The position numbers and the translations under genes were made by a program. 64,000 bases of DNA, taken from the IMG/VR virus record IMGVR_UViG_3300043467_001216; one strand, written 5' to 3'. The notes below the pieces were generated by a model. That model saw only the letters and a program-made list of their open reading frames with translations, was not told the origin of the DNA and ran no database searches. The DNA is from a virus (Duplodnaviria; Heunggongvirae; Uroviricota; Caudoviricetes). Shown here in pieces: positions 982-54,331 of this stretch (positions are counted from its first letter, which is position 1; every line of letters begins with the position of its first letter).

Positions 982-991
982 ATATTTATAA
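982..991 (+). promoter_or_regulatory. ATATTTAT-type upstream motif
   Basis: ATATTTATAA directly abuts ATG at 992. Confidence 0.4.
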
Positions 992-1606
992 ATGAAAAAA
1001 TATGGGTTGATGGTAGACATTATTGAATATAAAAATTTTAAATCGTTAAGTGAGAATACTGATAAAAAACAAATCATATTAACTCACACTTCAAGGTATA
1101 TTAACGATTATCTACAATCATTAAAATATAGACATAATGGGGATTATACTAAAATCCCCAATTATGTTATTGGTCGGGATGGTAAAATTCTTCAATTATT
1201 AAACAATGAAGAATGTTCTCAAATATTTAAAAACCCTGACATAGATAATAAATCAATTGTAATTTCATTAGAAAATTTAGGGTGGGTTCAAAAAGAACCC
1301 TTAACAAACCATTACGTTAACTGGATTGGTGATATTTATAATGGAGAGGTGTTTGAGAGAAAATGGAGAGATTACTATTTTTGGCAACCATACACTGATG
1401 GACAGATTAATTCATTAGTGTCTTTGTGTAAAAAAATATTTGGTGAAACCAAGATTGAATTTCAATTCATCGGTCATAATACAAAAATAACTGATTTTCA
1501 TAAATATGAGGGGTTATTAACAAGAAGTAATTACGATGTTTCATTTACAGATGTTAGTCCAGCCTTTAATTTTGAAGATTTTATAAAAAAAATAGAAAAT
1601 GGGTAA
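992..1606 (+). CDS. putative N-acetylmuramoyl-L-alanine amidase (Amidase_2/PGRP-like)
   Basis: IILTHTS, NYVIGRDGKILQ, NKSIVISLENLGW and YTDGQINSLVSLCKKI resemble the T7-lysozyme/PGRP fold; judged by eye only. Confidence 0.45.
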   Translation: MKKYGLMVDIIEYKNFKSLSENTDKKQIILTHTSRYINDYLQSLKYRHNGDYTKIPNYVIGRDGKILQLLNNEECSQIFKNPDIDNKSIVISLENLGWVQKEPLTNHYVNWIGDIYNGEVFERKWRDYYFWQPYTDGQINSLVSLCKKIFGETKIEFQFIGHNTKITDFHKYEGLLTRSNYDVSFTDVSPAFNFEDFIKKIENG

Positions 1607-2219
1607 TTCACACGACGAAATTAAAAGATTATTAAAAGCCTCAAGAACATTATTATCTAACGATAAATTAAATGAGGAGTATGAAGATATTAGAATCAAA
1701 TATAACATATTATCAGAACAATCAGTGGTTGGTGATAGATATAATGTTGGTCAGAGTATTGAGGATGAAATCGAAGATGACGAATATGAAACCGCAGAAA
1801 CGGAAGATGAGGAAATTGAAGATGAAGGGAGTGGTAGTGACAAGAAACAAGGTTATAGAGTTTCAGGGGGTATTTTAGTTTTACACGGTAAAGAACAAAC
1901 CGATTTAGAATTAACTACAGACGAGAAAATCACATTTCAAGAAACTATGGATGAATTTGTTACTGAAGTTTCAGATTTGGTTGATTTTAATAAACTAAAC
2001 ATTTATCCAAAAAACGTGGAGTGGTCAGGTAAAATCATTGATTTTGACATTGAATTTTATTTTAGTATTGGTGAGGAAAATGGGGTTTATATTGATAGTC
2101 AAATGGTTAAAGTTGATGAACAGTTTTTAGACTTATTAACTAAATTACAACAATACTACGAGAAATTCAAATCTAAATGGTCTAAAGTATTAGCGAGTAG
2201 AAAACGAACAACAGTATAA
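1599..2219 (+). CDS. hypothetical acidic protein
   Basis: 206-aa ORF, 8-nt overlap with upstream gene; nested ORF 1672-1878 rejected. Confidence 0.6.
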   Translation: MGNSHDEIKRLLKASRTLLSNDKLNEEYEDIRIKYNILSEQSVVGDRYNVGQSIEDEIEDDEYETAETEDEEIEDEGSGSDKKQGYRVSGGILVLHGKEQTDLELTTDEKITFQETMDEFVTEVSDLVDFNKLNIYPKNVEWSGKIIDFDIEFYFSIGEENGVYIDSQMVKVDEQFLDLLTKLQQYYEKFKSKWSKVLASRKRTTV

Positions 2220-2238
2220 TAAATTAAATTAGAATGAT

Positions 2239-2487
2239 ATGGCTTTAAGTACAACTGACAAACGAGAAATTGAAAATATTGTTAGAAAAGAAATAAAAGA
2301 CTTCTTGGGTTCTAATACTATTAAACAATTTGAAAATAAATTATTGGATATAATTGCTAGTGAATTAAATAACCGTAGTAAAGTTAATACTAATGTTAAA
2401 GAGATTGTGGTTAAAGTTTTTAGAGAATTCTATTACTATATGTGGTCTCAAAAAAGTTCTTGGGAACCTAAATTAAGAAATGCTTAA
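2239..2487 (+). CDS. hypothetical protein
   Basis: 82-aa ORF in + strand gene train. Confidence 0.55.
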   Translation: MALSTTDKREIENIVRKEIKDFLGSNTIKQFENKLLDIIASELNNRSKVNTNVKEIVVKVFREFYYYMWSQKSSWEPKLRNA

Positions 2488-3121
2488 AAAAATGGAAAGT
2501 ATTGTTAAAAGATTAGTTGATGGGTTTAATAAAAATAGTTCAGGTAAATTAACAGGTATGGAAGGTGCCTTGGCGAAGAATGATTTTATGAGAGATATTA
2601 GTGAAGAAGATATGGATGAAAAATGGTCTGAAAATTTTAAGAAAAGTATCGACTGTGATAATCCAAAAGGGTTTTCTCAAAAAGCTCATTGTCAGGGTAA
2701 AAAGAAAAAAGGTGAACATCAAGAATCAACAGGTGCTGCAAGTGCCGGTGGTTATTCCGCACCATTGTTTGGTGAGTCTGACGGGGAAATCACTAAAGTT
2801 GAGGCTAATGAAGTGACAAGTAGTTCTTCTGTTGGTGCGTATGACGCTCCTGGTTTTGAAGATGTTAAGATGAGAGGTAATCATACTCGTGGTTCAGGTA
2901 GGTCTTATAAAAAGACACAAGTACCAGGTGGTTCTTTTGTACAGGTTAAATCAAAATGTAAGAAATTTCCATATTGTAATCAAGGTATTGGAGCAATTAA
3001 ACTATATGGAGGTAAAAAACTGAACGAGGCAATATCCAAAGTGAGTAATAAAATGAATATAAGTGAAGATACCGTTAGAGAAATCATTGCTTATGAATAT
3101 AGAAATTTACTTTCAAAGTAA
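2480..3121 (+). CDS. hypothetical protein
   Basis: 213-aa ORF overlapping upstream stop by 8 nt. Confidence 0.6.
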   Translation: MLKKMESIVKRLVDGFNKNSSGKLTGMEGALAKNDFMRDISEEDMDEKWSENFKKSIDCDNPKGFSQKAHCQGKKKKGEHQESTGAASAGGYSAPLFGESDGEITKVEANEVTSSSSVGAYDAPGFEDVKMRGNHTRGSGRSYKKTQVPGGSFVQVKSKCKKFPYCNQGIGAIKLYGGKKLNEAISKVSNKMNISEDTVREIIAYEYRNLLSK

Positions 3122-3138
3122 TTTAAAATAAAAACTAA

Positions 3139-3150
3139 ATATTTATATAA
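3139..3150 (+). promoter_or_regulatory. ATATTTAT-type upstream motif
   Basis: ATATTTATATAA 12 nt before ATG 3162. Confidence 0.35.
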
Positions 3151-3161
3151 AAAAATATAAA

Positions 3162-5488: not shown

Positions 5489-5668
5489 ATGGAAACATTA
5501 GAACAAATCAAAACTTTGACTGAGGAATTGTCAGTTGACGCAACTAAGTTCTTTAAAGGTAATAACAGTGCGGGAACAAGAGCGAGACAATCGGCTCAAA
5601 AATTAAAGAATTTATTACAATCTTTAAGAGAAGAGATTTTAACGGAAAGAAAAAAAGAGGAGAAGTAA
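5489..5668 (+). CDS. histone H1-like small basic DNA-binding protein (Bacteroidetes type)
   Basis: 59-aa ORF below ORF-track cutoff; FFKGNNSAGTRARQSAQKLKNLLQSLREEI matches the ~60-aa H1/Hc1-like proteins common in Bacteroidetes. Confidence 0.5.
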   Translation: METLEQIKTLTEELSVDATKFFKGNNSAGTRARQSAQKLKNLLQSLREEILTERKKEEK

Positions 5669-7284: not shown

Positions 7285-8208
7285 ATGCAAACAAATTATT
7301 ACGACGTACTTGGAGTTAAAGAAAACTCAGACCAAGACACGATTAAAAAAGCTTATAGGTCTTTGGCGAAAAAACATCATCCAGATAAAGGTGGTAATGA
7401 TGAGATGTTTAAGAAAGTTTCTGAAGCTTATGATGTTTTAGGGGATGAAAATAAACGAAGACAATATGATACCCAAAAACAAAACCCATTTCATAATGCA
7501 AGAGGTGGTGGGAATGGATTTAATCCATTTGATGAAATGTTCAATATGTTTAATGGTGGTCGACAAAGACAGAGAACTGTTCCTGATAAAATAATTGATA
7601 TTTTAATAACACCTGTAGAATCCTATAATGCGGTTGATAAACATATTAAATATCAAAGAAAACATATGTGTGTTGATTGTCACGGTAATGGGGGTGATAG
7701 ACAACACTGTGGACATTGTAATGGTACTGGTGTGATAACACAACGAATTGGTACGGGAATGTTTATTCAAATGGTTCAATCGCATTGTAATGTTTGTAAT
7801 GGTGTTGGTTATACATATACTAGAGTTTGTGGGACTTGTAAAGGTTCTTGTACTACTGAAAAAATGGACAGTATTAGTGTTAAATTACCTCACGGAATTG
7901 ATGACGGTCAATTTTTGAAAGTTCAAGGGAGAGGTGATTTTAGTAATGGTATTTATGGTAATTTAATTATTAGAATTAAAGTTAAAAATGATAGTAATTT
8001 TGAGAAATTTGGGGATGATTTAATTTATAATAAATTTTTGAACTTAGATGAATTAAAAGTGGATTCGTTTGTAGTCCCACATCCTTCAGGTGACTTATCA
8101 ATAAAAATACCACCAGTATTTGATTCATCAATACCTTTAAGAGTTAAATCTAAAGGTTATAATAATGGTGAGTTGTATATTAAATTATATGTAAAGTTCA
8201 CACGTTAA
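7285..8208 (+). CDS. dnaJ: type I DnaJ/Hsp40 co-chaperone
   Basis: J domain with HPD (YYDVLGV...KKHHPDKGG); G/F-rich linker; four CxxCxGxG zinc-finger repeats ([32 protein letters not shown]); C-terminal domain. Confidence 0.9.
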
Positions 8209-9362: not shown

Positions 9363-9377
9363 ATATTTATAGATAAA
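9363..9377 (+). promoter_or_regulatory. ATATTTAT-type upstream motif
   Basis: ATATTTATAGATAAA 8 nt before ATG 9386. Confidence 0.4.
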
Positions 9378-11996: not shown

Positions 11997-12020
11997 ATTA
12001 TCAGGTATTGAATTATTTAT

Positions 12021-12028
12021 TATATTTG
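12021..12028 (+). promoter_or_regulatory. Bacteroidetes-type -7 box
   Basis: TATATTTG only 4 nt before ATG 12033. Confidence 0.5.
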
Positions 12029-12032
12029 TGGT

Positions 12033-13772
12033 ATGGAAGTATTGTTAGACATTAAATCAGTTAAAAGTTCTGTAAATATATACAAGAATTATTGCCCATT
12101 AGAAATTGAAGATATTTTCGGGAAAGGGTCTTTTGATGCTAAAACGTTATATTCAGATAGTAAAAGACATACACATTACGAATTTGATAAATCTGAGGAA
12201 ATAAGTGGTTCTGACTTGTTTGACAAATATAAAAACGACCAATTATGTTCACCTTCAATAAATAGAAAAAGTGTTGAGGTATTAAAGAGTAATGAAAAGG
12301 TGACGATTAAAATTTATCGTTACAATTTACATAGAGAAATAGGGAAACCGTATTTCAGAAAATCAACCTCGTATGTTTCATTAACATATAATATTAAACG
12401 TAATCAGTTTTATTTCTTTCTTATTAACAATTATCACAAGAAAAGAAATTTTAGTAAAACACTTAGATGTCTTAGTCCGTACTTGATATTGAATCATTTC
12501 CGACACCACTTAGTTGATACTTTATCTAATCGTGATGATGTTGATAAAGTCTTTAATGTTTTTTTTAAAGGTATTTACGAAGATATGGTTAATTACGTTG
12601 ATTTACTTGAATACGTTGTTAAAAAACAAGGGTTTAAATTACCGAACAATTTTGATGTATTCGCTGATGCTATCGGTGGTAATGGTTTCTATGGTAGAAC
12701 ACCAACTAAATTAGATGGTAAGAGAAATGGGTTTAAATATATTGATACCATTATGGGTATTAACATTTTGAAGGGGGATAAACTTAGACGAGTATTACAT
12801 AAGGTATCAGGATTTAATTTGGGTTTATATTATGAAATGGCTAGTTACTTTAAGGATGATTTTATTTTATCAAGACCTGATGAGGACCTAATTAAAATCT
12901 TTAATTCAAATATTAGTTATTCATCATTAAATGGGAGTGTCTTGATGACTAGGCAAGAAAAAATTAATATGTATAATATTATTATGGAGTTGATTAATAC
13001 TAATAGTAGTGATTTGTATTCAATTTCTGACCATTTAAATATTAAAAATAAATTGTCTAAATACGAAACTGTGAAGTGGAAATCTAAAACATATGATGAG
13101 TTTGTTGATGAGCACGACGAATGGTCACGTAATTTAGATTCATACACTAAAGGTGTAACACAAAGAAGATATAATAAAGAGTTCCTTAATCACATTGAAA
13201 AACCGTTTGAAATGGATGGTATTAAATACTACCCTGTTGTTTTAAACAGTAGTGATGATTATAATAGAGAATCAACTGTTCAAACAAACTGTGTTAGAAC
13301 TTATATCCATTATGCTCATTCATTGATTGTGTCATTACGTAGAGATAGTAAAGACAGTTATGAAAGATTAACTATTGAGGTGAATTTAATACCTGATGAG
13401 GATGTTAGATTATTAAGAAAACAAACTAAGGCAAAGAGAAATTCAACACCTGACGATAGTTGGAGTTTAGCGACTCGTGAACTTGATGACAGAATTGAGT
13501 TTATTAATAAGAATGGGTTATTTACTTTACCTGAAATGGACGTAATTTATACACGAGGTTTACCTAGACACGCAAAGGTTGATAATAGACTGATTCACAA
13601 TGATGGTTACAGTTATTGGACTGTATGTTGGGATGATGAAGAAGTTGACTCTATTACTGGTCTGTCATATTTCCCTGTGATTGATGATGAGGTAACCCAA
13701 GATGAAATTGATTATTTATTAACTAATAACACTCCGAATTATGTTACGGAGGATGATGATTTACCATTATGA
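12033..13772 (+). CDS. PcfJ-like domain protein
   Basis: 579-aa ORF; TNCVRTYIHYAHSLIVSLRRDSKDSYERLTIEV resembles the PcfJ core (HCV..Y...I.SLR...TLE); recalled from memory, not searched. Confidence 0.6.
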   Translation: MEVLLDIKSVKSSVNIYKNYCPLEIEDIFGKGSFDAKTLYSDSKRHTHYEFDKSEEISGSDLFDKYKNDQLCSPSINRKSVEVLKSNEKVTIKIYRYNLHREIGKPYFRKSTSYVSLTYNIKRNQFYFFLINNYHKKRNFSKTLRCLSPYLILNHFRHHLVDTLSNRDDVDKVFNVFFKGIYEDMVNYVDLLEYVVKKQGFKLPNNFDVFADAIGGNGFYGRTPTKLDGKRNGFKYIDTIMGINILKGDKLRRVLHKVSGFNLGLYYEMASYFKDDFILSRPDEDLIKIFNSNISYSSLNGSVLMTRQEKINMYNIIMELINTNSSDLYSISDHLNIKNKLSKYETVKWKSKTYDEFVDEHDEWSRNLDSYTKGVTQRRYNKEFLNHIEKPFEMDGIKYYPVVLNSSDDYNRESTVQTNCVRTYIHYAHSLIVSLRRDSKDSYERLTIEVNLIPDEDVRLLRKQTKAKRNSTPDDSWSLATRELDDRIEFINKNGLFTLPEMDVIYTRGLPRHAKVDNRLIHNDGYSYWTVCWDDEEVDSITGLSYFPVIDDEVTQDEIDYLLTNNTPNYVTEDDDLPL

Positions 13773-14741: not shown

Positions 14742-15548
14742 TTAAAAGATAATACAGTTATTTGTTTGGTCTTTAAATAACCAAGGTTTAGGACCGAAGG
14801 GTTCGTCAATATCTTTGGTGAACTCATATGTTGATAATGTATGTTTGAATGATTCTAAATCAAAATTAAATACATCTAGCACCATTGATTTAATTACTTC
14901 ATCATTATACATTGAATCCGTTTTAATCTCAATCATAAAATCTTCATCTTCATCAATCCTTGTTGAGATTTTAAATGTTAATTTTTTTGAACTAATACTT
15001 GTCATAATGTTATGGGCGATATATTCAGAATAATAATAATGTATTCGACCCATATTTAGACTGTAACCGTGAGGGAATTCAGATGTGATTGTTATTGGGG
15101 GGTAAATGAAATTAGGTAATACGTCAATATCGGTACTTAAAAAATCAATTTCATATACTAAATCATTTGTGATTGAAAGGGAATTATCTAAACTTGCGTT
15201 TTGAATTATGAAGTCGGAGTATATTGGTCTTGATGTGTTATAGAATGTGAACCAATAGTCTTCTTGTTTTTTAGGACTAACGTCGTATTCGACTAAATCA
15301 ACAAGGTTAAGGTCTTTATATCCCAACACCTCTAAAACGTCTTTATTTTCTTTTAAAAACGATTCTTTAATGTGTGTAAGGTCTAATGGTTTCTCATATG
15401 ACGTGAATCCGTTAATTATAACAAATTTACCACAATCTGAGGTTTCAATTACAGAGTCATAATCACCTAACTTATTAATTTCATTTAGGATATGGTCCGC
15501 AAATTTGTTAACTATACCTCTATTTCTTTTAGGGTTAATGTATTTCAT
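14742..15548 (-). CDS. hypothetical protein
   Basis: 268-aa minus-strand ORF. Confidence 0.65.
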   Translation of the reverse strand: MKYINPKRNRGIVNKFADHILNEINKLGDYDSVIETSDCGKFVIINGFTSYEKPLDLTHIKESFLKENKDVLEVLGYKDLNLVDLVEYDVSPKKQEDYWFTFYNTSRPIYSDFIIQNASLDNSLSITNDLVYEIDFLSTDIDVLPNFIYPPITITSEFPHGYSLNMGRIHYYYSEYIAHNIMTSISSKKLTFKISTRIDEDEDFMIEIKTDSMYNDEVIKSMVLDVFNFDLESFKHTLSTYEFTKDIDEPFGPKPWLFKDQTNNCIIF

Positions 15549-15652: not shown

Positions 15653-15802
15653 TTACCTTTTCGTGTAGTATTTCTCAACTACTTTCTTAATTGACTCTTG
15701 AATCGTTTGGTTTTGAGGTTGAGCACCTCCTTGTTCCGGTTGTGGTTGAGCTCCTCCTTGTTGTGGTGCTTGATTTCCTTTATTTTTGCATCCGCATCCC
15801 AT
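15653..15802 (-). CDS. small Q/G/P-rich protein starting MGCGCKNK
   Basis: 49-aa ORF below track cutoff; internal repeat QQGGAQPQP/EQGGAQPQN; hairpin at 15608-15634 downstream. Confidence 0.35.
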   Translation of the reverse strand: MGCGCKNKGNQAPQQGGAQPQPEQGGAQPQNQTIQESIKKVVEKYYTKR

Positions 15803-15891
15803 TGTATTTTTGTTTTAAAGTTTATTCATCAATAAATATCTTACAAACAACTTAATTGTAAATAATAGATAATTATTAATATAATTAATTG

Positions 15892-15906
15892 ATATTTATT
15901 GATATG
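15892..15906 (+). promoter_or_regulatory. ATATTTATTGATATG motif containing the start codon
   Basis: identical 15-mer at 36986 and 54317. Confidence 0.5.
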
Positions 15907-18818: not shown

Positions 18819-18860
18819 TCTGGACTTATATTTATTAATAAAAATAAATTAAAGTTCAGA
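18819..18860 (+). promoter_or_regulatory. inverted repeat enclosing ATATTTATTAATAAA motif
   Basis: TCTGGACTT (18819-27) pairs with AAGTTCAGA (18852-60); motif at 18828-18842 sits in the loop; upstream of tail-fibre gene. Confidence 0.45.
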
Positions 18861-18870: not shown

Positions 18871-20751
18871 ATGGCTAATCAAAAAGTCCCCCAATTACCC
18901 GTATTAACCGCTATCACAGGTAGTGATTTATTTTACGTTGTTGACGTTAGTGATATAACGGATGACCCAACGGGTAGTTCCAAACAGATTACAAGAGACG
19001 AAATATTAACAAGTGTTAATCAAATAGATTTTAACTTAACTGCCGTAACAACACACGAGGAAGGTCGAGTTTCTTGGAATGATGATATTAAATCATTAGA
19101 AATTGATACTGAAAACCCTGAAGTTCAAGTCCAAGTAGGACACGAAATGGTTATTAGAGTTAACAATCAAACAGGTTCTATTTTAACTAAAGGGACTGTT
19201 GTGTATATCAACGGTGCTCAAGGTCAAAGACCTACAGTGACTAAGGCGGATTATAGTGCTGATACGTCATCAGCGTCAGTTATTGGTTTAGTTGCAGCTG
19301 ACATAAATAATGGTGATAATGGTTATGTTATCACATCAGGAATTCTTGAAGGTGTCAACACAATTGATTATACGGCAGGAACATCATTATATTTGTTCAC
19401 AGGTGGGACGTATTCCTCAAATAAACCGCAAGCCCCTGACCACGATGTTCGTATTGGTAAAGTGGTTGTGTCAAACGCAACTACGGGTTCTATATATGTT
19501 AATGTTCAGAATGGTTATGAACTAGATGAATTGCACGACGTTAGAATCACAAGTGTGTCTGAGAATGATGTCTTGGTTCGTAGTACCTATAACGGTTCAC
19601 CTGTTTGGGTGAATACTAAAACAATTTCAGGTCTTACATATGTGCAGGCGACAACAATATCTGCAACGACATATCAAAATTTACCACCTGACTTATGGAC
19701 TCAGAATGGTAGTAGTATATACTATAATGGTGGGAATGTTGGTATTGGTCAAAGTAACCCAACTAGAAAGTTTGAGGTTGTAGATGGTGCTAGTTTAGCT
19801 TATTTTAACTTAACTGGTACAAGTGGACCAGCAGCTGTTATTAGTACTACAGACCTTACAAAATTAACTAGATTTATTGCAACTGATGGGACTAATTCAA
19901 TAAATATTGGTATTAGAACATCTGGTGAAACTGATAATCCTACTGTTGGTGGACAAGGTGATGCATTTATTTATGTTAATGCAAGTGCTAAGGGTTTAAG
20001 TATTGTTAATGCACCTTTTACAGGTATTAATAATGATTATATTAGATTATATGCGGGTTTACTTGCGACTCAAGGTATATCACATTTACACGTGCAAGGT
20101 TCTGGAACTACTAAAGGGTTTATCGGAATAAATAATGAAAATCCTATTGCACGACTACATGTAAGTGGTGATACACTCATAGATGGTGTTTTATCAGCGA
20201 CAACAATATCAGCAACAACCGCATCAATATCAGGTTCAGGTCAAAATGTTTTAACTGTTACAGGTTCAGGTAATAGTACCTCATCACCAATATTTAAAGT
20301 TATTGGTTCACAAGGAGAATTGTTTAGTGTTACTGATTCATTAACAGGTTTATTACAAAGTGTTAATAATATCTCAGGTTTACCAATTTGGCAAGTATAT
20401 TCTGATAATACCATATTAATGGGAACGTATTTAGCACCTTCGTTAAACACGACCGTTAGGGTATCATTAACTGCTGGAACTAATACTGTCTATTCAATAC
20501 CGACAAGTGCCTATACAGGTGGTTTCTTTGATTATACTGTGATTAGTAGTGGAGGTGCGGGAGCTAGAGCGGGAACTGTTATGTCTATATGGAGTGGTAC
20601 TACGGCTGAATACACTGATGTATCAACTAATGATATTGGTAATACATCGGGGATATCATTTTCAGTTGCGGTTTCCGGTGGTAATTCAGTGTTAAGTTGT
20701 TCCGCAACTACTACGGGTTGGATATTAAAAACTATAGTTAGAAGTATATGA
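18871..20751 (+). CDS. tail fibre protein
   Basis: 626 aa, S/T/G/N-rich beta-type sequence; N-terminus MANQKVPQLP.LTAITGSDLFYVVD typical of phage fibres; shares ISATTYQNLP motif with 22515 ORF. Confidence 0.7.
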   Translation: MANQKVPQLPVLTAITGSDLFYVVDVSDITDDPTGSSKQITRDEILTSVNQIDFNLTAVTTHEEGRVSWNDDIKSLEIDTENPEVQVQVGHEMVIRVNNQTGSILTKGTVVYINGAQGQRPTVTKADYSADTSSASVIGLVAADINNGDNGYVITSGILEGVNTIDYTAGTSLYLFTGGTYSSNKPQAPDHDVRIGKVVVSNATTGSIYVNVQNGYELDELHDVRITSVSENDVLVRSTYNGSPVWVNTKTISGLTYVQATTISATTYQNLPPDLWTQNGSSIYYNGGNVGIGQSNPTRKFEVVDGASLAYFNLTGTSGPAAVISTTDLTKLTRFIATDGTNSINIGIRTSGETDNPTVGGQGDAFIYVNASAKGLSIVNAPFTGINNDYIRLYAGLLATQGISHLHVQGSGTTKGFIGINNENPIARLHVSGDTLIDGVLSATTISATTASISGSGQNVLTVTGSGNSTSSPIFKVIGSQGELFSVTDSLTGLLQSVNNISGLPIWQVYSDNTILMGTYLAPSLNTTVRVSLTAGTNTVYSIPTSAYTGGFFDYTVISSGGAGARAGTVMSIWSGTTAEYTDVSTNDIGNTSGISFSVAVSGGNSVLSCSATTTGWILKTIVRSI

Positions 20752-21476
20752 GTACACATTATAAACCAAGGATTATTACTGATAATTTAATTTATTATGT
20801 TGACGGTGCTAATACCTCATCATACCCTGGAACAGGAACTATTTGTGATGATTTATCACGTCGTCAATTATTAGAACTGTCTTTAGTTAATGGGGTTGCA
20901 TTTGAAAATAATAATGGTGGTGTTTTTACATTTGATGGTGTTGATGACTTAATGTTATCTGATGTTACGATGAACGGTAAAATGACTAGTGGTATGACAT
21001 TTGATGTTTGGTTTAAACGAACTCAAGATATGAACGCATTTAATATGGTGGTTTCAAATCCGGTTCCTTATATTGCGTTTAGAGGTTCGGGTGCGGGTGT
21101 TAACTCTCAATATTTTTTATTTTCATTTTTAACTAGAATATCTTCAACTAATACGCAACGTTATTTATATTCTAATAATACGTTTAGTAATAATGTTTGG
21201 TATAATGTTGTTTGTACGTTATCTCAAAATACGACAACACAAGTGGTTGATGCTAAAATGTATGTTAATGGTGAATTAAACAATACTATAAGTGTTGGTT
21301 CGGCAACTGATAGTGTGTATCAACCCACTGCTGGGACTTTTTTTAGATTGGCGAATTACGCTCCAGCGGCATATCCGTTTAAAGGTAATATTTCGTCAGT
21401 TAAAATGTATGATAAATTACTAACGTCTGATGAAATTTTACAAAATTATAATACATTAAAAAATAGATTTAATTAA
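20748..21476 (+). CDS. LamG/concanavalin-A-like lectin domain protein
   Basis: FTFDGVDD, W...V and FKGNISSVKMYDKLLTSDEILQNY typical of LamG_3 domains; ATGA overlap with fibre gene. Confidence 0.7.
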   Translation: MSTHYKPRIITDNLIYYVDGANTSSYPGTGTICDDLSRRQLLELSLVNGVAFENNNGGVFTFDGVDDLMLSDVTMNGKMTSGMTFDVWFKRTQDMNAFNMVVSNPVPYIAFRGSGAGVNSQYFLFSFLTRISSTNTQRYLYSNNTFSNNVWYNVVCTLSQNTTTQVVDAKMYVNGELNNTISVGSATDSVYQPTAGTFFRLANYAPAAYPFKGNISSVKMYDKLLTSDEILQNYNTLKNRFN

Positions 21477-21501
21477 ATATAAAAAAAATAGTTAGAATTG
21501 T

Positions 21502-22185
21502 ATGAGTTCATTTTCAGGTCCAAAAATAGATATTAATAACCTTGTGTTGTATTTAGATGCGGGAAACTCTGATTCTTATGTTAGTGGTTCTACCACATGG
21601 TATGATTTAAGTGGTAATAATTATAATGGTACGTTAATTAATGGTACGGGTTTTAGTAGTGAAAAAAATGGTTGTATGACATTTGATGGTATTGACGATA
21701 TGGTTAGAACAAATTTTCAAACAATAACTGTAAATAGTAGTTTTGAGATATGGGCTAATAGAACTGAGAGTGTCAACGCATATAATATGATGGCTGGTAT
21801 GTATCTACCTTATTTTGCTATGAATAGTGGTAATACTTTACACTTTTCTAATTCAATAGGTGGTGTTCAAAGAAGTGCTTTTTCTTCACCATCAGGAACT
21901 TTAATGGATAATACTTGGTATTGTTTTCATTTTGTAAATTCATATGATGGTGTTAATACAACAATGAAATCGTATATTAACGGCACTTTAGTTCGTAGTA
22001 TTACTAATACAGGTCAAACGATTACAACAACTTTTCTTCCTCTAGTTATTGGTGGTTGGAGGTCTAATTTACCAACTGATTATCCATTTAAAGGTAAAAT
22101 ATCAATTGTTAAGGTTTATAATAAAGAATTAACACAAGATGAAATTAATCAAAACTATAATGCAACAAAAGGTAGATATTTATAA
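21502..22185 (+). CDS. LamG/concanavalin-A-like lectin domain protein (paralog)
   Basis: MTFDGIDDMV and FKGKISIVKVYNKELTQDEINQNY; paralog of 20748-21476. Confidence 0.7.
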   Translation: MSSFSGPKIDINNLVLYLDAGNSDSYVSGSTTWYDLSGNNYNGTLINGTGFSSEKNGCMTFDGIDDMVRTNFQTITVNSSFEIWANRTESVNAYNMMAGMYLPYFAMNSGNTLHFSNSIGGVQRSAFSSPSGTLMDNTWYCFHFVNSYDGVNTTMKSYINGTLVRSITNTGQTITTTFLPLVIGGWRSNLPTDYPFKGKISIVKVYNKELTQDEINQNYNATKGRYL

Positions 22186-22187
22186 TT

Positions 22188-22457
22188 ATGGAAACAATAT
22201 TACAAGATTACGAAAACAGAAAATTTATGATATTTAACGTATCTGAATTGGGCTTGATTGATTTTACACAAGTTTATCAAACATCAATTGATACTGTTAG
22301 AAAATCAGTTGATGGAACTAAAACATTGGTTAAATGGGATTCGGATGGAATACCATCATCAGTTAATCAACTAACAACCAAAGAAGGTCCATATACTTAT
22401 GATGAAATAATCGTTATTTTAAATACTTCTGAATGGAGTGGGACAATACCTGAATAA
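22188..22457 (+). CDS. hypothetical protein
   Basis: 89-aa ORF in structural module. Confidence 0.55.
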   Translation: METILQDYENRKFMIFNVSELGLIDFTQVYQTSIDTVRKSVDGTKTLVKWDSDGIPSSVNQLTTKEGPYTYDEIIVILNTSEWSGTIPE

Positions 22458-22514
22458 ATTAATAATTGATGGTATTTATACATAAATAAACCTGGATAGG
22501 GAAAGGTAAAAATT

Positions 22515-22985
22515 ATGTCAAACGAATTTAATATAAAGAATGGGTTTATCTCAAACTCAGATTCTAGAGTGATTGGTGGTTTCACCGCTAACACAATATC
22601 AGCAACAACTTATCAAAACTTACCTGTTGACCCCAATTATTATGTAACTGCGTTCACGTATAGTAATAACGTATTTACGGTTAAGCAAACAGGACAATCT
22701 GATTTAACGGCAACAATAAATTCTGTAACAGGGTGGACTGTTAATGGTGTTTTAACTGTTACGGGTGATACATCATTACAGGGTGTTACTGCAAATACCA
22801 TATCGGCAACAACAATATCAGGTGGGACTATGGTTATAACAACAACACCAACTACTGATAATACGTTAACTCAAGTATTATCAAGAGACCCAGTAACGGG
22901 AACTGTCGAATTAGTCGATACAACATCATTCCCATTCAACTATGGGTTGGCAAACGCAATAATGACAGGAACTTTTTTAACATAA
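22515..22985 (+). CDS. short tail-fibre-related protein
   Basis: ANTISATTYQNLP and ANTISATTISGG repeats shared with 18871 ORF. Confidence 0.6.
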   Translation: MSNEFNIKNGFISNSDSRVIGGFTANTISATTYQNLPVDPNYYVTAFTYSNNVFTVKQTGQSDLTATINSVTGWTVNGVLTVTGDTSLQGVTANTISATTISGGTMVITTTPTTDNTLTQVLSRDPVTGTVELVDTTSFPFNYGLANAIMTGTFLT

Positions 22986-23011
22986 AAATAAAAATAAAAA
23001 TAAAGTAATAT

Positions 23012-23434
23012 ATGGCAAATACATCATTAAATACACAACCAATTTATACGGCATCCGCTGATACTCAATGGATTGGAGGGGCTTTAACTGCGAACACAAC
23101 TAAAGACTTAACATCAGGAACTGCTTATTTGGCGTTTACTGCGTCAGCGAATGGGGGGTATGTTCAAAGATTAAGATTAAGACCATTAGGGACTAACGTC
23201 GCATCATTGGCTAGAATATTTATTAATAATGGTGATGTTACAGGAACAACCGCGAATAATATTCTTTGGGATGAGATATCATTACCGGCAACAACAGTTT
23301 CTGAGACATCGGCTTTACCTACTTATGAAATTCCATTAAATTTTGCATTACCCGCAGGTTACAGATTGTTTGTGACTATTGCTACGGGTGTGGCCGCAGG
23401 TTTTGCGATAACAGTTATAGGTGGAAAATATTAA
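23012..23434 (+). CDS. hypothetical structural protein
   Basis: 140-aa ORF in fibre module. Confidence 0.6.
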   Translation: MANTSLNTQPIYTASADTQWIGGALTANTTKDLTSGTAYLAFTASANGGYVQRLRLRPLGTNVASLARIFINNGDVTGTTANNILWDEISLPATTVSETSALPTYEIPLNFALPAGYRLFVTIATGVAAGFAITVIGGKY

Positions 23435-23437
23435 GAT

Positions 23438-23617
23438 ATGAACGAGTATATATTGTGGGAGTTTGAATACGGATACACAGGTCAAGTGTATCAGGAAATC
23501 AATAACGGACAAGTTATTAGATATTGTGATTTGGATGGGAATACTTTAACACTTGAAGGTGCTTACGGGTATAATTTAATAAATGTAACACCAGAAAGAC
23601 CAAGTTGGGCGTTATAA
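23438..23617 (+). CDS. small hypothetical protein
   Basis: 59-aa ORF below cutoff; fills the gap exactly between neighbours. Confidence 0.4.
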   Translation: MNEYILWEFEYGYTGQVYQEINNGQVIRYCDLDGNTLTLEGAYGYNLINVTPERPSWAL

Positions 23618-23618
23618 T

Positions 23619-24539
23619 ATGATAGATACTTTTAACATAAATGACGGTAGTTTAAACAACCAAGTGTTCAACTATAATGGGAATACAGGGTGGCAAGTAT
23701 GGAACAAACCACCTAAATGTAATTTAGTGAATTTCTTTTTAGTTGGTGGTGGTGCCGGTGGTCAAGGTGGTATTATTAATTCTGCCGCCAATCGTAATGG
23801 AGGTGCGGGAGGTGGTTCTGCCGCCTTTTCATATATAACCGTTCCAGCATTTGCAATTCCCGATACTTTATATATATTAGTGGCAAGTGGTGGAACAGGA
23901 GGTGCGTCAAGTGGTGGTGCCGGTGGTCAAGGAAGTCTTAGTTATGTCTGTTCTGTACCTGATACGTCAACTGTTAATAATATATTAATGAGGAGTGGTT
24001 CGGCGAATGCGGGTGTTACAACAACAACAACTGCGGGTGCGGCAATTACTGTTGCGGATATTTTATTAGCTGAGGCTGCGTTTATTTCAGGATATGCGGG
24101 TCAAACAGGTGGTGCGGGTGGTGTAACAAGTACTCCTGCGGTTGATATAACACCAACAGGTATTCCATTCACATCAGGTGCGGGTGGTGCTGGATGTGGT
24201 TCGACAGGAACGTTAGGTGTTGCGGGGGATATCGTAGGTATTTTAGATTTCCCAATTATCTCAGGTGGTACAAATACATCATCGGCAGGTGCGACTGCGG
24301 GTTCGGGAAATAACGGATTTTCGACAAGAGAAAGTTTTACTAGCCAAAATTATAAATATCCTATGTTCTTTACAGGAGGTGCCGGTGGTGGTGCAGCCTC
24401 TAACGCAACAGGTGTTGGAGGACGTGGTGGTGATGGAGCCTATGGTTGTGGTGGAGGAGGTGGTGGTGCCGGTGGAAACACAACTGCGGGACGTGGTGGT
24501 GATGGTGGTCACGGATTAGTTATAATTACAGTTACATAA
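23619..24539 (+). CDS. glycine-rich domain protein (paralog 1)
   Basis: MIDTFNI...WQVWNKP..C..V.FFLVGGGAGGQGG...GGAGGGSA...L.ILV..GGTGG...GGDGGHGLVIIT; Gly_rich-type pattern. Confidence 0.75.
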   Translation: MIDTFNINDGSLNNQVFNYNGNTGWQVWNKPPKCNLVNFFLVGGGAGGQGGIINSAANRNGGAGGGSAAFSYITVPAFAIPDTLYILVASGGTGGASSGGAGGQGSLSYVCSVPDTSTVNNILMRSGSANAGVTTTTTAGAAITVADILLAEAAFISGYAGQTGGAGGVTSTPAVDITPTGIPFTSGAGGAGCGSTGTLGVAGDIVGILDFPIISGGTNTSSAGATAGSGNNGFSTRESFTSQNYKYPMFFTGGAGGGAASNATGVGGRGGDGAYGCGGGGGGAGGNTTAGRGGDGGHGLVIITVT

Positions 24540-24542
24540 AAT

Positions 24543-25487
24543 ATGATAGATACTTTTCACATATCAGATGGTAGTGTCAATAGACAAGTGTTCTATGCGA
24601 CAGGACCGAATACCTTCCAAACTTGGAATAAACCCCAAAACTGTAAATTCGTTTACTTCGTATTAATCGGAGGTGGCGGAGGTGGCGGAGGTGGTCAAAG
24701 TGGTGGAACAGGAACCTCTCGTAGAGGTGGTGGTTCAGGTGGTTCAGGTGGATTAACTAAAGGTATGTTTCCCTCTTCAATTATTCCTGATAGATTATAT
24801 ATTCAAGTTGGTTCAGGTGGAACTGCTGGTGTTGGTGGTACGACTAACAGTGATGGTGGTACTGCTGGTATATCATATGTTATGGTTACACCTGACACTA
24901 CTGAAACTGCACAAAATATACTACTACAAAGTAGTTTGGCGGCTGCGGGTGGTGGTCGTTCAGGTTTAAATGGTGGTGCTCTTGGTGCTGCTGCAACGGC
25001 TTGGGTATTCACTAATAATATTTTTTATAAATTTGGGTTGGTTGATACTTATGCGGGTCAAGCGGGTGTTTTAGGTCAAACAACGGCATTACCAACTAAC
25101 TTAACAATTAGTGGTATTGTAAGTGGTGGTGGTCCAGGTGCGGGTCAAAACGGTGCAACTGCACAAGAGGGTGGTTCAGTTGTTGGTGGTGGGTCAATAC
25201 CTACAATGACAGGAGGACCAGCGGGTGGTTCAGCGACATCAACAACACCCGGAGGTAATGGTAGTGGTGGATATATGACATTTACCCCTAACACACTTGG
25301 ATACACAACAGAACCATTGATATTTATCGGTGGTGCTGGTGGTGGTTCATCAGATGGTGGACCCGGAGGTTCAGGAGCTGGCGGAGCCTATGGTTGTGGT
25401 GGTGGAGGAGGTGGAGCCGGAATAACTAACCAAGGTGGTAATGGTGGTAAAGGTGGTGACGGAATAGTCATAATAACGTGGTGGTAA
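24543..25487 (+). CDS. glycine-rich domain protein (paralog 2)
   Basis: same N- and C-terminal frame as paralog 1; 3-nt spacer. Confidence 0.75.
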   Translation: MIDTFHISDGSVNRQVFYATGPNTFQTWNKPQNCKFVYFVLIGGGGGGGGGQSGGTGTSRRGGGSGGSGGLTKGMFPSSIIPDRLYIQVGSGGTAGVGGTTNSDGGTAGISYVMVTPDTTETAQNILLQSSLAAAGGGRSGLNGGALGAAATAWVFTNNIFYKFGLVDTYAGQAGVLGQTTALPTNLTISGIVSGGGPGAGQNGATAQEGGSVVGGGSIPTMTGGPAGGSATSTTPGGNGSGGYMTFTPNTLGYTTEPLIFIGGAGGGSSDGGPGGSGAGGAYGCGGGGGGAGITNQGGNGGKGGDGIVIITWW

Positions 25488-30260: not shown

Positions 30261-30294
30261 ATCTATAAATATTGTGAGGTTAAATAAAATTAAC

Positions 30295-30302
30295 TATATT
30301 TG
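30295..30302 (+). promoter_or_regulatory. Bacteroidetes-type -7 box
   Basis: TATATTTG 5 nt before the smpB ATG. Confidence 0.55.
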
Positions 30303-30307
30303 TTACT

Positions 30308-33927: not shown

Positions 33928-33986
33928 GAAATAACGTTTCTTTGTATCGTATAACAAAGTGGTGGATGTGCCTCTATGGCCCCAAA

Positions 33987-34011
33987 GGGAGATTTCGGTC
34001 TCCCTTTTTTT
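33987..34011 (+). terminator. rho-independent terminator
   Basis: GGGAGA-tttcgg-TCTCCC followed by T7. Confidence 0.85.
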
Positions 34012-34019: not shown

Positions 34020-34034
34020 ATATTTATAAATAAA
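34020..34034 (+). promoter_or_regulatory. ATATTTATAAATAAA motif
   Basis: identical 15-mer at 35397. Confidence 0.5.
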
Positions 34035-35396: not shown

Positions 35397-35411
35397 ATAT
35401 TTATAAATAAA
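35397..35411 (+). promoter_or_regulatory. ATATTTATAAATAAA motif
   Basis: 10 nt before ATG 35422. Confidence 0.5.
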
Positions 35412-35421: not shown

Positions 35422-35889
35422 ATGGAAAAAGTTTTTAGTAAAAAATCAATATTGAATAAAAGACTATTCGAACAGGAAGAGGAAAAGGATGATACTAACG
35501 TTGAAAAATCTGAAGGTAAAGTAAGCGGGTCATTTGTTGATATAGTTTCAGGGATTTTACATTCAAGAACTCAAATACATATATATCATTTACAAACAAA
35601 ATCGTTTGCGGTTCATAAAGCCTTAAATGATTATTATGATGGTGTTGTTGATTTATTTGACGGTTTAGTTGAATCATATCAAGGTAAACACGGAATTGTT
35701 GAGGATTATAAATGTGATGGTTACGATAATTACACTAGTGTTAATAGTGCAATTGAATACTTACAGAAATTGGATAAAACAATTGAGAGTTCAAGAAAAT
35801 CAGTTAAAGAAAGTTTCATTCAAAATCAAATAGACACAGTTCAAGAATTAATTTACTCAACTATTTATAAGTTGAAATTCTTGGAATAA
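35422..35889 (+). CDS. hypothetical protein (weak Dps/ferritin-like helical-bundle resemblance)
   Basis: 155-aa ORF; IHIYHLQTKSFAVHKALNDYYDGVVDLFDGLVE loosely resembles Dps helices A and B. Confidence 0.55.
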   Translation: MEKVFSKKSILNKRLFEQEEEKDDTNVEKSEGKVSGSFVDIVSGILHSRTQIHIYHLQTKSFAVHKALNDYYDGVVDLFDGLVESYQGKHGIVEDYKCDGYDNYTSVNSAIEYLQKLDKTIESSRKSVKESFIQNQIDTVQELIYSTIYKLKFLE

Positions 35890-35916: not shown

Positions 35917-35946
35917 ACCCCAATTTTAATTAGTTGGGGTTTTTTA
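35917..35946 (+). terminator. rho-independent terminator
   Basis: CCCCAA-ttttaattag-TTGGGG followed by a T-run. Confidence 0.8.
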
Positions 35947-35947
35947 T

Positions 35948-35955
35948 TATATTTG
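35948..35955 (+). promoter_or_regulatory. Bacteroidetes-type -7 box
   Basis: TATATTTG 4 nt before ATG 35960. Confidence 0.5.
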
Positions 35956-35959
35956 TTTT

Positions 35960-36286
35960 ATGGATGCGAAAGGAAAATATAAGTTAGCCGAATTGCTTGT
36001 TGATAAGACAAAATTAGCCGTAAATTATGAAGGGATTAACTTCATCCAATTCAGAATTGAATTTCCATTTTTAAAAGGTGGTGTTTGTAAGGATTACTAT
36101 TTAAAACTTGAGTTGGAAAAAAATTCTTGGAATTTTGGAATGCCACCTAATTATCACTTAATCACTTACTTAGAAACTTTATTCAGAATTAAAGATGAAT
36201 CAATAATAAACGAGATTCGTGAATTATATCTTGATATATTTGAAGAAAGAATTAAAAATTTACAAGTATATCTATTGACACATTGA
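35960..36286 (+). CDS. hypothetical protein
   Basis: 108-aa ORF. Confidence 0.55.
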   Translation: MDAKGKYKLAELLVDKTKLAVNYEGINFIQFRIEFPFLKGGVCKDYYLKLELEKNSWNFGMPPNYHLITYLETLFRIKDESIINEIRELYLDIFEERIKNLQVYLLTH

Positions 36287-36935: not shown

Positions 36936-36967
36936 CCCCCCATCTGTTAAAGGTGGGGGTTTTTTTA
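36936..36967 (+). terminator. rho-independent terminator
   Basis: CCCCCA-tctgttaaagg-TGGGGG followed by T8. Confidence 0.85.
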
Positions 36968-36968
36968 T

Positions 36969-36976
36969 TATATTTG
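36969..36976 (+). promoter_or_regulatory. Bacteroidetes-type -7 box
   Basis: TATATTTG. Confidence 0.4.
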
Positions 36977-36985
36977 TATTTAGTA

Positions 36986-37000
36986 ATATTTATTGATATG
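36986..37000 (+). promoter_or_regulatory. ATATTTATTGATATG motif containing the start codon
   Basis: identical to 15892 and 54317. Confidence 0.5.
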
Positions 37001-37705: not shown

Positions 37706-38314
37706 TTATTTGATATCAGTTGATTCTAATAATGTGTAACTAAATTTGTTACCGTGAATTTTAAGTGCTTTTTTACAGATTTTCATAAACTCGTTAAAGT
37801 CTTTAACTCTTTTGAATACTTGACATCCTTCAGACCAGTTTTCAACCCAAGTAGAATCTGTTCCTGCTTTATGGATGTTAATACCAAACATACCTTCATC
37901 AATTAAAGTCTCTTCGAATATTAAATCTTTATTAGCGTCTCTCCATACTTTTACTTTCGCCAATCTTTGACAAAGAGCTTCGTATTTTCCTTGATGTAAA
38001 TCAACCGCCCAAGTAGTTCTATATTGATTTGGAACTAATCTAGCAACACCTTTTTTATTGTGGAATTGTTGAACTCCTTTTTTACCTGGGTCACAGGTTG
38101 CGTTCCAGCAATAGAATTGCCAAACACCTTTCTCATCTTTAAATGAAATTGTGATATGGTCATCAAATACGTTAGTTACTTTTTTAGCAACTGATGGTGC
38201 GTTGTTTCTAACACCAACGATATTAACATCATAACTTTTATTTGATTTGTCCTCAAACCACACATAACCTTTAGCTTTTAAAGCTGATTCAATCTGTTCT
38301 CTTGTATAAGACAT
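37706..38314 (-). CDS. putative peptidoglycan-active enzyme (endolysin candidate; S-x-G-C motif)
   Basis: NIVGVRN, CDPG, GINIHKAG and WSEGCQVF resemble a phage cell-wall hydrolase family with a YkuD-like SxGC motif; by eye only. Confidence 0.5.
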   Translation of the reverse strand: MSYTREQIESALKAKGYVWFEDKSNKSYDVNIVGVRNNAPSVAKKVTNVFDDHITISFKDEKGVWQFYCWNATCDPGKKGVQQFHNKKGVARLVPNQYRTTWAVDLHQGKYEALCQRLAKVKVWRDANKDLIFEETLIDEGMFGINIHKAGTDSTWVENWSEGCQVFKRVKDFNEFMKICKKALKIHGNKFSYTLLESTDIK

Positions 38315-38463
38315 AATTTAAATTTTTTTGTTTATTTAATTATAAATATGTAGTCGGTTATATTTATTGGTTTAAAAACCCCCGAACTAATGGAAGATAT
38401 TATTGAAGAATTTGAAGAATTTGGTGACCACCTTATTTGTTCTTTTTAAGAGTGGTTATTGAT

Positions 38464-40610: not shown

Positions 40611-40625
40611 GTATTTATTAATAAA
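40611..40625 (+). promoter_or_regulatory. GTATTTATTAATAAA motif
   Basis: 8 nt before ATG 40634. Confidence 0.45.
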
Positions 40626-42484: not shown

Positions 42485-42499
42485 ATATTTATTAATAAA
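42485..42499 (+). promoter_or_regulatory. ATATTTATTAATAAA motif
   Basis: identical to 18828; 8 nt before ATG 42508. Confidence 0.5.
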
Positions 42500-51467: not shown

Positions 51468-51482
51468 ATATTTATTTATATG
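51468..51482 (+). promoter_or_regulatory. ATATTTATTTATATG motif containing the start codon
   Basis: preceded by hairpin CCCCTAA-ttaatg-TTAGGGG. Confidence 0.45.
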
Positions 51483-53063: not shown

Positions 53064-53818
53064 ATATGAAGAAATTAATTTATTTTACATTAGGTAATAA
53101 TCCAAATTACTTAAAATTGGCTGATATGTGTATTAACAGTTTATATCATAATGGTTATGATGGTGATTTTTTATTTATAACTGACTTAAAGAATGAGATT
53201 TTAAACCAAATCAATTTTAAAACTCAACCTTATTTTTTAGAATTAAAAGAATCTTCATTGTTAGAATCGTCGGCGAATAAACTTAAAGTTTATTCATTTA
53301 ATAAAATAAATGAATATGATAAAATTATATTTTCAGATTTAGATATTTTATGGGTGTCGAACCCTGAAATAATTTTTAATCTTATTGATGAGGATAAATT
53401 TTATATGAGTAATGAAGAAGGGTTAATGACTGATGAATTATGGGGTGGTTTGTTGTTAACTGATACTGAAAAAATTGAAATTGACCAATTGAAAATTTTT
53501 GGGTTAAATTGTGGTCTATTTGCGTTTAATAACAAAATGATACCGTATTTAGAGCAGGTTGATTTATTTTTGAATAATAATTTAGAGTTACAAAATGTGT
53601 GTTTAGAACAACCATTTTTGAATGTTTATGTTTATCGTAATAATTTATATAATAATAAATTGAATGGTTTGGTTAGTCATAAAGGTTATCATTTTGTTAA
53701 TTCACCTTTAGATTTAATCAAATATGATGGTGTTGTTTTACATTTTGCAGGTGGTCCTGGTAATTATGATTTTAAATATGAAAAAATGTTGATTTATTTT
53801 AACGAATATTTTAAATAA
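53060..53818 (+). CDS. glycosyltransferase (GT8-like, DxD)
   Basis: IIFSDLDILW DxD motif; overall nucleotide-diphospho-sugar transferase layout. Confidence 0.6.
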   Translation: MNMKKLIYFTLGNNPNYLKLADMCINSLYHNGYDGDFLFITDLKNEILNQINFKTQPYFLELKESSLLESSANKLKVYSFNKINEYDKIIFSDLDILWVSNPEIIFNLIDEDKFYMSNEEGLMTDELWGGLLLTDTEKIEIDQLKIFGLNCGLFAFNNKMIPYLEQVDLFLNNNLELQNVCLEQPFLNVYVYRNNLYNNKLNGLVSHKGYHFVNSPLDLIKYDGVVLHFAGGPGNYDFKYEKMLIYFNEYFK

Positions 53819-53830
53819 ATAACGTGTTAT

Positions 53831-54031
53831 ATGTTGGTTGAGGGGGAATATAATTATGCTAAACTAATTACTATTGAAGGTGATGTTGTCGCGGTTGCGG
53901 TTATGGAAGTAGGTTCAGAGAATGAAGCTGGTGTTGTTAATTGGGCTTTAGATAATGATTTCACCTTAGTTAAGATTGACGAACAAGAGTTTTTGGATTT
54001 TGAAAGTGATTATGATATTGAACTTGAATAA
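53831..54031 (+). CDS. hypothetical protein
   Basis: 66-aa ORF. Confidence 0.5.
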   Translation: MLVEGEYNYAKLITIEGDVVAVAVMEVGSENEAGVVNWALDNDFTLVKIDEQEFLDFESDYDIELE

Positions 54032-54069
54032 AATTTTCACTCAGGTGTTGTGCATATCCAAAAGATAGT

Positions 54070-54077
54070 TATATTTG
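54070..54077 (+). promoter_or_regulatory. Bacteroidetes-type -7 box driving the sRNA
   Basis: TATATTTG with no ORF downstream. Confidence 0.5.
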
Positions 54078-54083
54078 TAGTGT

Positions 54084-54306
54084 GTGAGTGTCACACAGGA
54101 TGTCAGAACTCCTAACTTACAATCTGACCATTAAGTATCAGGTGAGATGATACGGGTTGATTACCCCAACTTAGTAAGTGAAACCATCAGGATGTCAGAA
54201 CTCCTAGTTCACAATCTGACCACTAAGAATCGGGTGAGGCGGTTCGGGTTAAACACCTCAATCCAAAGGATGAAATTTAAACCCCCAAGTACATTGGGGG
54301 TTTTTT
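54084..54306 (+). ncRNA. candidate phage sRNA: 5' hairpin, two tandem 92-nt pseudoknot-like units, intrinsic terminator
   Basis: no ORF on either strand; units start at 54096 and 54188 (46 of the first 52 nt identical); AGGA/TCCT interleaved with GTCAGA/TCTGAC; terminator CCCCCAA-gtaca-TTGGGGG followed by T6; 5' end approximate. Confidence 0.6.
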
Positions 54307-54316
54307 GTTTTATCTA

Positions 54317-54331
54317 ATATTTATTGATATG
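54317..54331 (+). promoter_or_regulatory. ATATTTATTGATATG motif containing the start codon
   Basis: identical to 15892 and 36986. Confidence 0.5.

Follow-up and report, generated by a model that had tools for sequence, protein, structure and literature searches.

An A/T-only box as the probable late-gene promoter of a myovirus group that includes Immutovirus and uncultured jumbo phages

The (A/C)TATTTAT box is a short A/T-only element found in front of many genes in a 64,000-nt stretch of tailed-phage DNA (IMG/VR record IMGVR_UViG_3300043467_001216; the whole stretch is called the window here). Most probably, it serves as late-gene promoter in a group of myoviruses that carry T4-type genes for morphogenesis and whose hosts are most likely Flavobacteriia. 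Immutovirus, a cultured genus, is part of this group, and so is the window's own clade, which is large, uncultured and characterized by genomes of about 300 kb. The window has a G+C content of 31%, is 93% coding and carries nearly all its genes on the + strand. Public contigs of up to 310,431 bp encode window proteins and the IMG/VR relatives are contigs of 280-322 kb, which means that the window stems from an uncultured jumbo phage. When 20 kb of window sequence were compared with GenBank phages by megablast, no relative was found. TAnnTTTG boxes, the host-type promoters of Bacteroidota, are plentiful in the window and indicate a Bacteroidota host.

A preliminary description of the window had listed 13 + strand copies of the element in three sub-forms and proposed it as a middle or late promoter or as a binding site for a phage transcription factor. 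The sequences are present at all 13 coordinates and the three sub-forms exist as described. Nine sites are exact copies of ATATTTAT(T/A)(A/G)AT. The other four are near-variants with an (A/G)TATTTAT core: 3139 (..ATAA), 27383 (..AATA), 40611 (GTATTTAT..) and 51468 (..TTAT). ATATTTATWRAT has 12 exact matches on both strands versus 0.59 expected from dinucleotide shuffles (at most 4 in 100 shuffles). The bare 8-mer is mildly over-represented, with 18 copies on the + and 14 on the - strand against about 10 per strand estimated from base composition. When a weight matrix was applied at a score of at least 13, 18 sites were obtained, 17 of which are intergenic or at the edge of an intergenic region, each oriented into the next gene. 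At a threshold of 11, the two strands hold 30 sites versus about 4 per strand in third-order Markov simulations. A de novo count of 7-mers in the 40 nt upstream of open reading frames (ORFs) placed TATTTAT first (20 versus 2.7 expected, p = 4e-12) and ATATTTA second, with the host-type ATATTTG lower. Position and orientation of the motif are far beyond chance. Sites that the preliminary list did not contain are 22176, 38360 and 23216 on the + strand and 30272, 15839 and 38349 on the - strand; 23216 lies within an ORF and is probably a chance match.

The box is kept upstream of orthologues that share 33-70% protein identity and have unrelated flanks. Of 48 distinct regions upstream of a T4-type large terminase family in IMG/VR, 42 have a terminator followed by the motif. 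The ATG offset, counted from the first motif position, is 21-22 in most of these terminase genes and 13 in some. Judged by the terminase, the nearest cultured phage is Flavobacterium phage vB_FspM_immuto with a genome of 160 kb (immuto in the following). There, the coding strand has 51 copies of (A/C)TATTTAT and the other strand 9, and the box precedes the genes for terminase, portal, sheath, tube, baseplate hub, tape measure, tail fibre, spike and virion proteins as well as the lysis cassette. The products of window genes 18871 and 21502 are homologous to tail-fibre and structural proteins of immuto. Window gene 22188 is homologous to immuto gene 142474, and the motif is located at the ATG of both (immuto offset 13). 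The module 18871-26459 has PHROG matches to virion structural and tail families. The gene set preceded by the box in immuto, together with the shared genes, argues for a late promoter and for 18871-26459 being a tail-fibre module. The earlier proposal of a middle or late promoter is thus supported by comparative evidence and would be narrowed to late by the immuto late genes, the terminase loci and the tail-fibre operon. An exact 16-mer scan of IMG/VR returned mostly chance matches in AT-rich contigs and became informative only when it was restricted to loci where several sites are well placed.

Since the motif is missing from Flavobacterium siphovirus 11b, an unrelated phage with host-type boxes before its late genes, the box is not a general signal read by the host. 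It is also distinct from the host TAnnTTTG box, as had been noted before, for TAHHTTTG promoters serve a different set of genes. By contrast, the motif is not specific to this phage, as was assumed, but common to the whole phage group. The suggestion that it marks tail-fibre and virion or ejected proteins holds for the tail-fibre module by homology to immuto, and it is for that module only that such products are shown.

The architecture of the motif was computed from 111 non-redundant sites in the window and its relatives. Positions 1-8, (A/C/G)TATTTAT, hardly vary, positions 9-12 are rich in A/T, and 74% of the sites have an A at position 13. No -35-like element was found in the 111 aligned sites, and only weak T-richness is visible upstream. 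Two ranges of ATG offset are preferred, 12-13 (33 of the 111 sites) and 22-26 (45 sites), with few sites in between. The host box TAHHTTTG shows in the same genomes the same offset peak at 12-13. In Flavobacterium johnsoniae, the -7 box reads T-12 A-11 H H T-8 T-7 T-6 G-5 and lies 4-5 nt from the start site (PMC6847099). As the offset peak is shared with a host box whose start site is known, the 8-mer appears to sit where the -7/-10 box sits. Judged by base identity, it does not fit the definition of the host sigma-A -7 box: the equivalent of G-5 is an A in 100% of the sites, and the equivalent of T-12 is a T in 41% only. Compared to Bacteroidota housekeeping promoters (-33 TTTG / -7 TAnnTTTG, read by sigma-ABfr), the motif is alike in box position, size and the ATG spacing of leaderless genes, and the ATATTT core is common to it and the TATATTTG boxes of the phage. 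Unlike these promoters, it lacks T-12 and G-5, fixes positions that are free in the host and marks the late gene set.

Based on this geometry, the following mechanism can be proposed. Transcripts coming from upstream would usually end at a terminator 0-14 nt before the box, and RNA polymerase would restart at the box. Intrinsic terminators end at this distance before sites 27383, 34020, 51468 and 54317, and nothing but the motif is conserved in the gaps after opposite-strand genes (40611, 42485). The A/T-only block of 8 invariant bp would replace the -10 box at about -12 to -5, and transcription would start at the preferred A at motif position 13 (or 14). An ATG at position 13 or 14 would yield a leaderless mRNA, any other offset a short A-rich leader of about 10-14 nt. 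We infer leaderless mRNAs at the offset-12-13 sites because 33 of the 111 ATGs are located there and the peak of the host box is identical. Bacteroidota mRNAs have no Shine-Dalgarno sequences and use A/U-rich upstream signals (PMC6847099), which short A-rich leaders would fit. In addition, TATATTTG boxes are found 4-5 nt before ATGs in Flavobacterium phage 11b, too (L298 4918 and 21103). With such spacing, leaderless mRNAs seem to be common for early genes as well, also in this unrelated phage.

The same A/U-rich signals could speak for a box that acts in the RNA, either as a 5'-untranslated region element recognized by ribosomes or an RNA-binding protein or as a processing site, and not as a promoter; this would also agree with the box being always on the sense strand and close to start codons. 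We consider this highly improbable: the distance to the ATG is not constant (12-13 or 22-26, with values of up to 43 among window sites and of 12-39 among those of immuto), strong terminators 0-14 nt upstream would let little RNA arrive at the box, the box is the sole candidate promoter in the gaps after opposite-strand genes, and its geometry equals that of the host -7 box. A role at the level of translation, as considered in the preliminary description, is unlikely for the first of these reasons.

The consensus is loosely palindromic (ATATTTA.TAAATAT) and sites 34020 and 30272 are nearly symmetrical, so that a dimeric phage transcription factor, activator or repressor, might bind here and cooperate with the host sigma-A holoenzyme, with no sigma factor recognizing the box itself. 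The ATATTT shared with the host-type boxes could be taken in the same sense. However, the left half alone is invariant and the right half is poor in information; the sites strictly follow the orientation of the genes; in the offset-12 class, a second element of the -7/-10 type is absent between box and ATG, and the near-invariant T-12 and G-5 of the host are absent from the motif. A dimer site is, therefore, quite unlikely, and a promoter element contacted by a sigma factor is the reading followed below.

Which factor might read this late promoter? T4 late promoters (TATAAATA) are read by gp55 together with gp33 and the gp45 sliding clamp, and have an 8-bp A/T-only block at the -10 position and no -35 element. 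We slightly favour a comparable reader for the box, the host core RNA polymerase with a phage-encoded, very divergent sigma factor of the gp55 family. A profile of six gp55 proteins matches L190 (E = 1e-6) and L185 (E = 7e-5), both on motif-bearing IMG/VR contigs, and the L185 protein matches immuto gp118 at 3e-57. Immuto gp118 (NC_055915.1 78174-78872; L295 28174-28869), annotated as 'hypothetical protein', appears to be a very divergent late sigma factor of this family. The alignment of the gp118 family contains a stretch, YSYFGT..K..L, that in our reading resembles sigma region 2. At least 600 matching stretches were found in IMG/VR, and 585 of these were confirmed as relatives. The sequences upstream of the immuto gp55-like operon are ambiguous as to the promoter. 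A late-motif site (78884) directly follows the stop codon of gp118. The gp55-like gene of the L186 type belongs to a different jumbo group.

The clade of the window offers a second candidate. A 266-aa RpoD/RpoS-like sigma factor is encoded about 0.5 kb to the left of the window (L009 5535-6335; window position 1 is L009 6840). It has regions 2 and 4, and RpoD and RpoS models matched it at about 1e-55. It is a core gene, found at 358 IMG/VR loci on contigs of up to 322 kb, the best 80 of which show 73-98% identity. Of 49 distinct regions upstream of its operon, 46 carry TAHHTTTG and a single one carries the motif, and a host-type promoter at this place fits an early-to-late cascade. Moreover, the gene is located just after the SbcD/SbcC pair, in the same way as gp55 adjoins gp47/46 in T4, Syn19 and Atu_ph07, and no gp55-like ORF was found within 10 kb on either side of it in 80 relatives. 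Accordingly, the same late promoter could be read in the jumbo clade by the phage's own RpoD/RpoS-like sigma factor, made early by host RNA polymerase from a host-type promoter, which would have taken over both the role and the neighbourhood of gp55. In this scenario, a full-length sigma factor beside SbcCD displaced the gp55-type late sigma in the clade of about 300 kb and reads a late promoter that consists of a single element without G or C and from which mostly leaderless or near-leaderless mRNAs originate. If true, there would be a two-step cascade from host sigma-A to the phage RpoD-like sigma, and two positions would account for most of the difference between the box and the host -7 box.

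We regard this takeover as rather unlikely. In immuto, which has the same motif on its late genes, a homologue of the RpoD-like sigma was not found, and one motif read by two unrelated factors is not parsimonious. A sigma factor whose region 4 is intact would normally require a -35 element, which is seen in none of the 111 sites, and the other 239 kb of the genome may carry a gp55-like gene. The gp55-type reader is preferred because one motif with one reader is more economical; its gene is assumed to be present in this genome, of which about 71 of 310 kb were covered by the search. Several points weigh against a late promoter served by such a sigma: motif-linked genes include some that are not obviously late (the DUF192 gene, the Dps-like gene and genes without function assignment); the terminase loci are tied to genomes with the RpoD-like sigma through a chain of matches at 33-50% identity; a gp55-like gene was found neither in the window nor in the regions around the RpoD-like sigma mentioned above; and the link from gp55 to L190 and L185 depends on modest E-values from small local databases. 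Terminase or gp55-like loci could not be joined to contigs with the RpoD-like sigma, the best 80 matches being close relatives of the queries only.

Three further genes were considered and rejected as sigma candidates. ORF 57978-58466 matched, in a phmmer search (E 0.006, 13.7 bits), the C-terminal non-sigma part of gp55 and has no homologue in immuto. L009 1187-1894 (235 aa), suggested as gp55-like by its location between SbcD and SbcC, gave nothing in BLASTP against immuto gp118. The gene fragment upstream of SbcD is not sigma-like. A phmmer search with T4 gp45, a single-sequence search that is weak for clamp proteins, detected nothing in immuto or the examined loci, which makes coupling to a sliding clamp doubtful.

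Among known systems, T4 late promoters share with the box a single A/T block of about 8 bp without -35 element, its position relative to the start being inferred in our case. They share, too, the location before genes for morphogenesis and lysis, in phages whose terminase, portal, capsid and sheath are of the T4 type, and a gp55-family sigma, which is putative in the immuto group. They differ in sequence: (A/C)TATTTAT stands against TATAAATA, which is present in some motif sites only, as an overlap at positions 6-13, where 9-10 vary. Furthermore, the candidate sigma of the immuto group is so divergent that it can be detected only via intermediate sequences, many motif transcripts would be leaderless, and the window's clade carries the additional RpoD-like sigma. 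In phage phiEco32, the sigma factor gp36 directs the host core enzyme to one element of about 9 bp without a -35 region, and transcription starts a few bp downstream (PMC8948821). A single conserved element, the lack of a -35 and a phage-encoded sigma (a candidate here) are common to both, whereas phage, host phylum and consensus are unrelated and gp36 lacks region 4, which the RpoD-like sigma has. In the early promoters of phiKZ and AR9, an AT-rich motif of about 10 nt is highly conserved near -10 and can be recognized from sequence alone (PMC7598289). The box is likewise a conserved AT-rich motif discovered by sequence analysis, but their motifs are early and read by a virion-packaged multisubunit RNA polymerase. 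An early promoter of this type, considered in view of the jumbo phage origin of the window, was rejected for the box, which marks late genes; an RNA polymerase subunit is not among the first 25 of the 36 Pfam families matched by 76 window ORFs.

Single-element late promoters read by phage sigma factors are already known (T4 gp55; phiEco32 gp36, PMC8948821). What seems to be new is a sequence variant in a new host phylum, the probable leaderless output and the additional, unexplained second sigma factor. A literature search found no description of the motif. The rule (A/C)TATTTAT plus four A/T plus A would mark late transcription units and correct start codons. It could be applied to hundreds of genomes of uncultured freshwater and marine phages and to a cultured Flavobacterium phage, where it is directly testable. 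The data suggest a T4-style late transcription with a distinct promoter dialect in Bacteroidota phages and many leaderless late mRNAs in a host phylum without Shine-Dalgarno-based initiation. Another, testable question that they raise is the reason for the extra primary-like sigma factor in the jumbo clade.

The individual sites of the window are as follows. The copy at 982-995 (+) is located before an amidase gene. Its sequence is present, but its function is doubtful: among 49 distinct upstream regions of orthologues, it is retained in only two, the ATG offset of 10 is atypical, and the site is probably not functional. The motif ATATTTATATAAAA at 3139-3152 (+) precedes a 578-aa gene (ATG 3162, offset 23) and is kept before the orthologous gene at 35-50% amino acid identity within unrelated flanks. 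ATATTTATAGATAA at 9363-9376 (+) leads to a 461-aa protein with a leucine-rich-repeat-like domain (ATG 9386, offset 23) and is kept in the L066 orthologue (39% identity). At 15828-15839 (-), the motif forms half of a divergent pair (weight matrix score 16.5); it leads to a 49-aa ORF (15653-15802) and then to gene 14742-15548. ATATTTATTGAT at 15892-15905 (+) is directly followed by ATG 15904 (offset 12) of a 498-aa protein with a predicted leaderless mRNA. The tail-fibre module 18871-26459 is preceded by a motif at 18828-18841 (+; offset 43) and contains an internal one, ATATTTATAATT at 22176-22189 (+), directly before ATG 22188 (offset 12). Thirteen nt past a terminator hairpin (27344-27370), the motif at 27383-27396 (+; ATG 27404, offset 21) is kept in the L148 and L006 orthologues.

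On the - strand, the motif at 30261-30272 is directly followed by ATG 30260 (offset 12) of a DUF192 gene (29919-30260) and lies back to back with the host-type promoter of gene 30308. The L007 orthologue of the DUF192 gene (70% identity) has the same motif and ATG in unrelated flanks. The site at 34020-34033 (+; ATG 34042, offset 22) begins 13 nt past the terminator hairpin 33984-34007. At 35397-35410 (+; ATG 35422, offset 25), the motif precedes the gene for a Dps-like DUF5856 protein and is kept in four of four orthologous upstream regions. At 36986-36999 (+), it is directly followed by ATG 36998 (offset 12), lies 10 nt downstream of a host-type TATATTTG box and is kept in orthologues at 33-42% identity. 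The tandem arrangement of both elements (36966-36999, +) is conserved in L001, L002 and L148. This combination of host-type box and putative late motif suggests that gene 36998 is expressed both early and late. The motif at 38338-38349 (-) serves a lysin-like gene (37706-38314, phrog_3000) at an offset of 35, is kept in five of six orthologous upstream regions and diverges from the weaker + strand site 38360. The variant GTATTTATTAATAA at 40611-40624 (+; ATG 40634, offset 23) is situated in a 37-nt gap after an opposite-strand gene. Also after an opposite-strand gene, the motif at 42485-42498 (+; ATG 42508, offset 23) precedes the gene for a 554-aa protein and is kept in L001, L003, L006 and L007 at about 50% amino acid identity. 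The variant ATATTTATTTAT at 51468-51481 (+) begins at the last base of a terminator hairpin and is directly followed by ATG 51480. The last site, 54317-54330 (+), lies 14 nt past the terminator hairpin 54279-54303 and directly before ATG 54329. The N-terminal 'FIDM' of three genes proved to be an ORF-calling artefact, as predicted: the first ATG, GTG or TTG had been taken as start, which gave TTG 15889, GTG 36953 and TTG 54305 instead of ATGs 15904, 36998 and 54329. The other promoter class is exemplified by the host-type box TATATTTG at 12013-12035 (+), 4 nt before ATG 12033. Similar boxes are found before genes 30308 (30290-30310) and 35960 (35940-35962).

Many motif-linked proteins share an N-terminus composed of two hydrophobic residues, T/N/A, E and S/N/Q, e.g. 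MKVIITESN, MKIILTENK, MKHKIMITESQ and MRNILAEQ. This signature was observed at starts 15904, 34042, 40634, 42508, 51480 and 54329, in addition at 28477, 54802 and in gene 14742-15548 (-), and recurs in relatives. T4-type prohead proteases cleave at an I/L-x-E site. The signature may be the mark of a paralogous family or a short propeptide that ends in such a prohead protease site.

The window genes with Pfam matches are mostly accessory and include DnaJ, SmpB, Sir2, DNA methylases, NUDIX and thioredoxin. Unusual for a phage are SmpB, Sir2, a full-length DnaJ (7285-8208), an Hc1 histone-like protein (about 5489-5668) and the Dps-like DUF5856 protein (35422-35889). No transfer-messenger RNA was found to go with SmpB, either with ARAGORN, which covered the window, or with Rfam, for which 59.4-61.7 kb was the only stretch searched. 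Rfam revealed three extra tRNA-like genes on the + strand (60273-60371, 60443-60556 and 61297-61411). With 99-115 nt, they exceed the model by 30-45 nt and may be tRNAs with an intron or insertion. ARAGORN missed all three and reported only tRNA-Thr at 61462-61532. Convincing ORFs are absent from 59.8-61.5 kb. The region 23619-26459 (+) encodes a tandem of three paralogous proteins, each of about 310 aa, that have Gly_rich_2 domains and PHROG matches of tail-fibre type. It lies in the one part of the window that is rich in G+C (24-28 kb, 40.6% versus about 31%).

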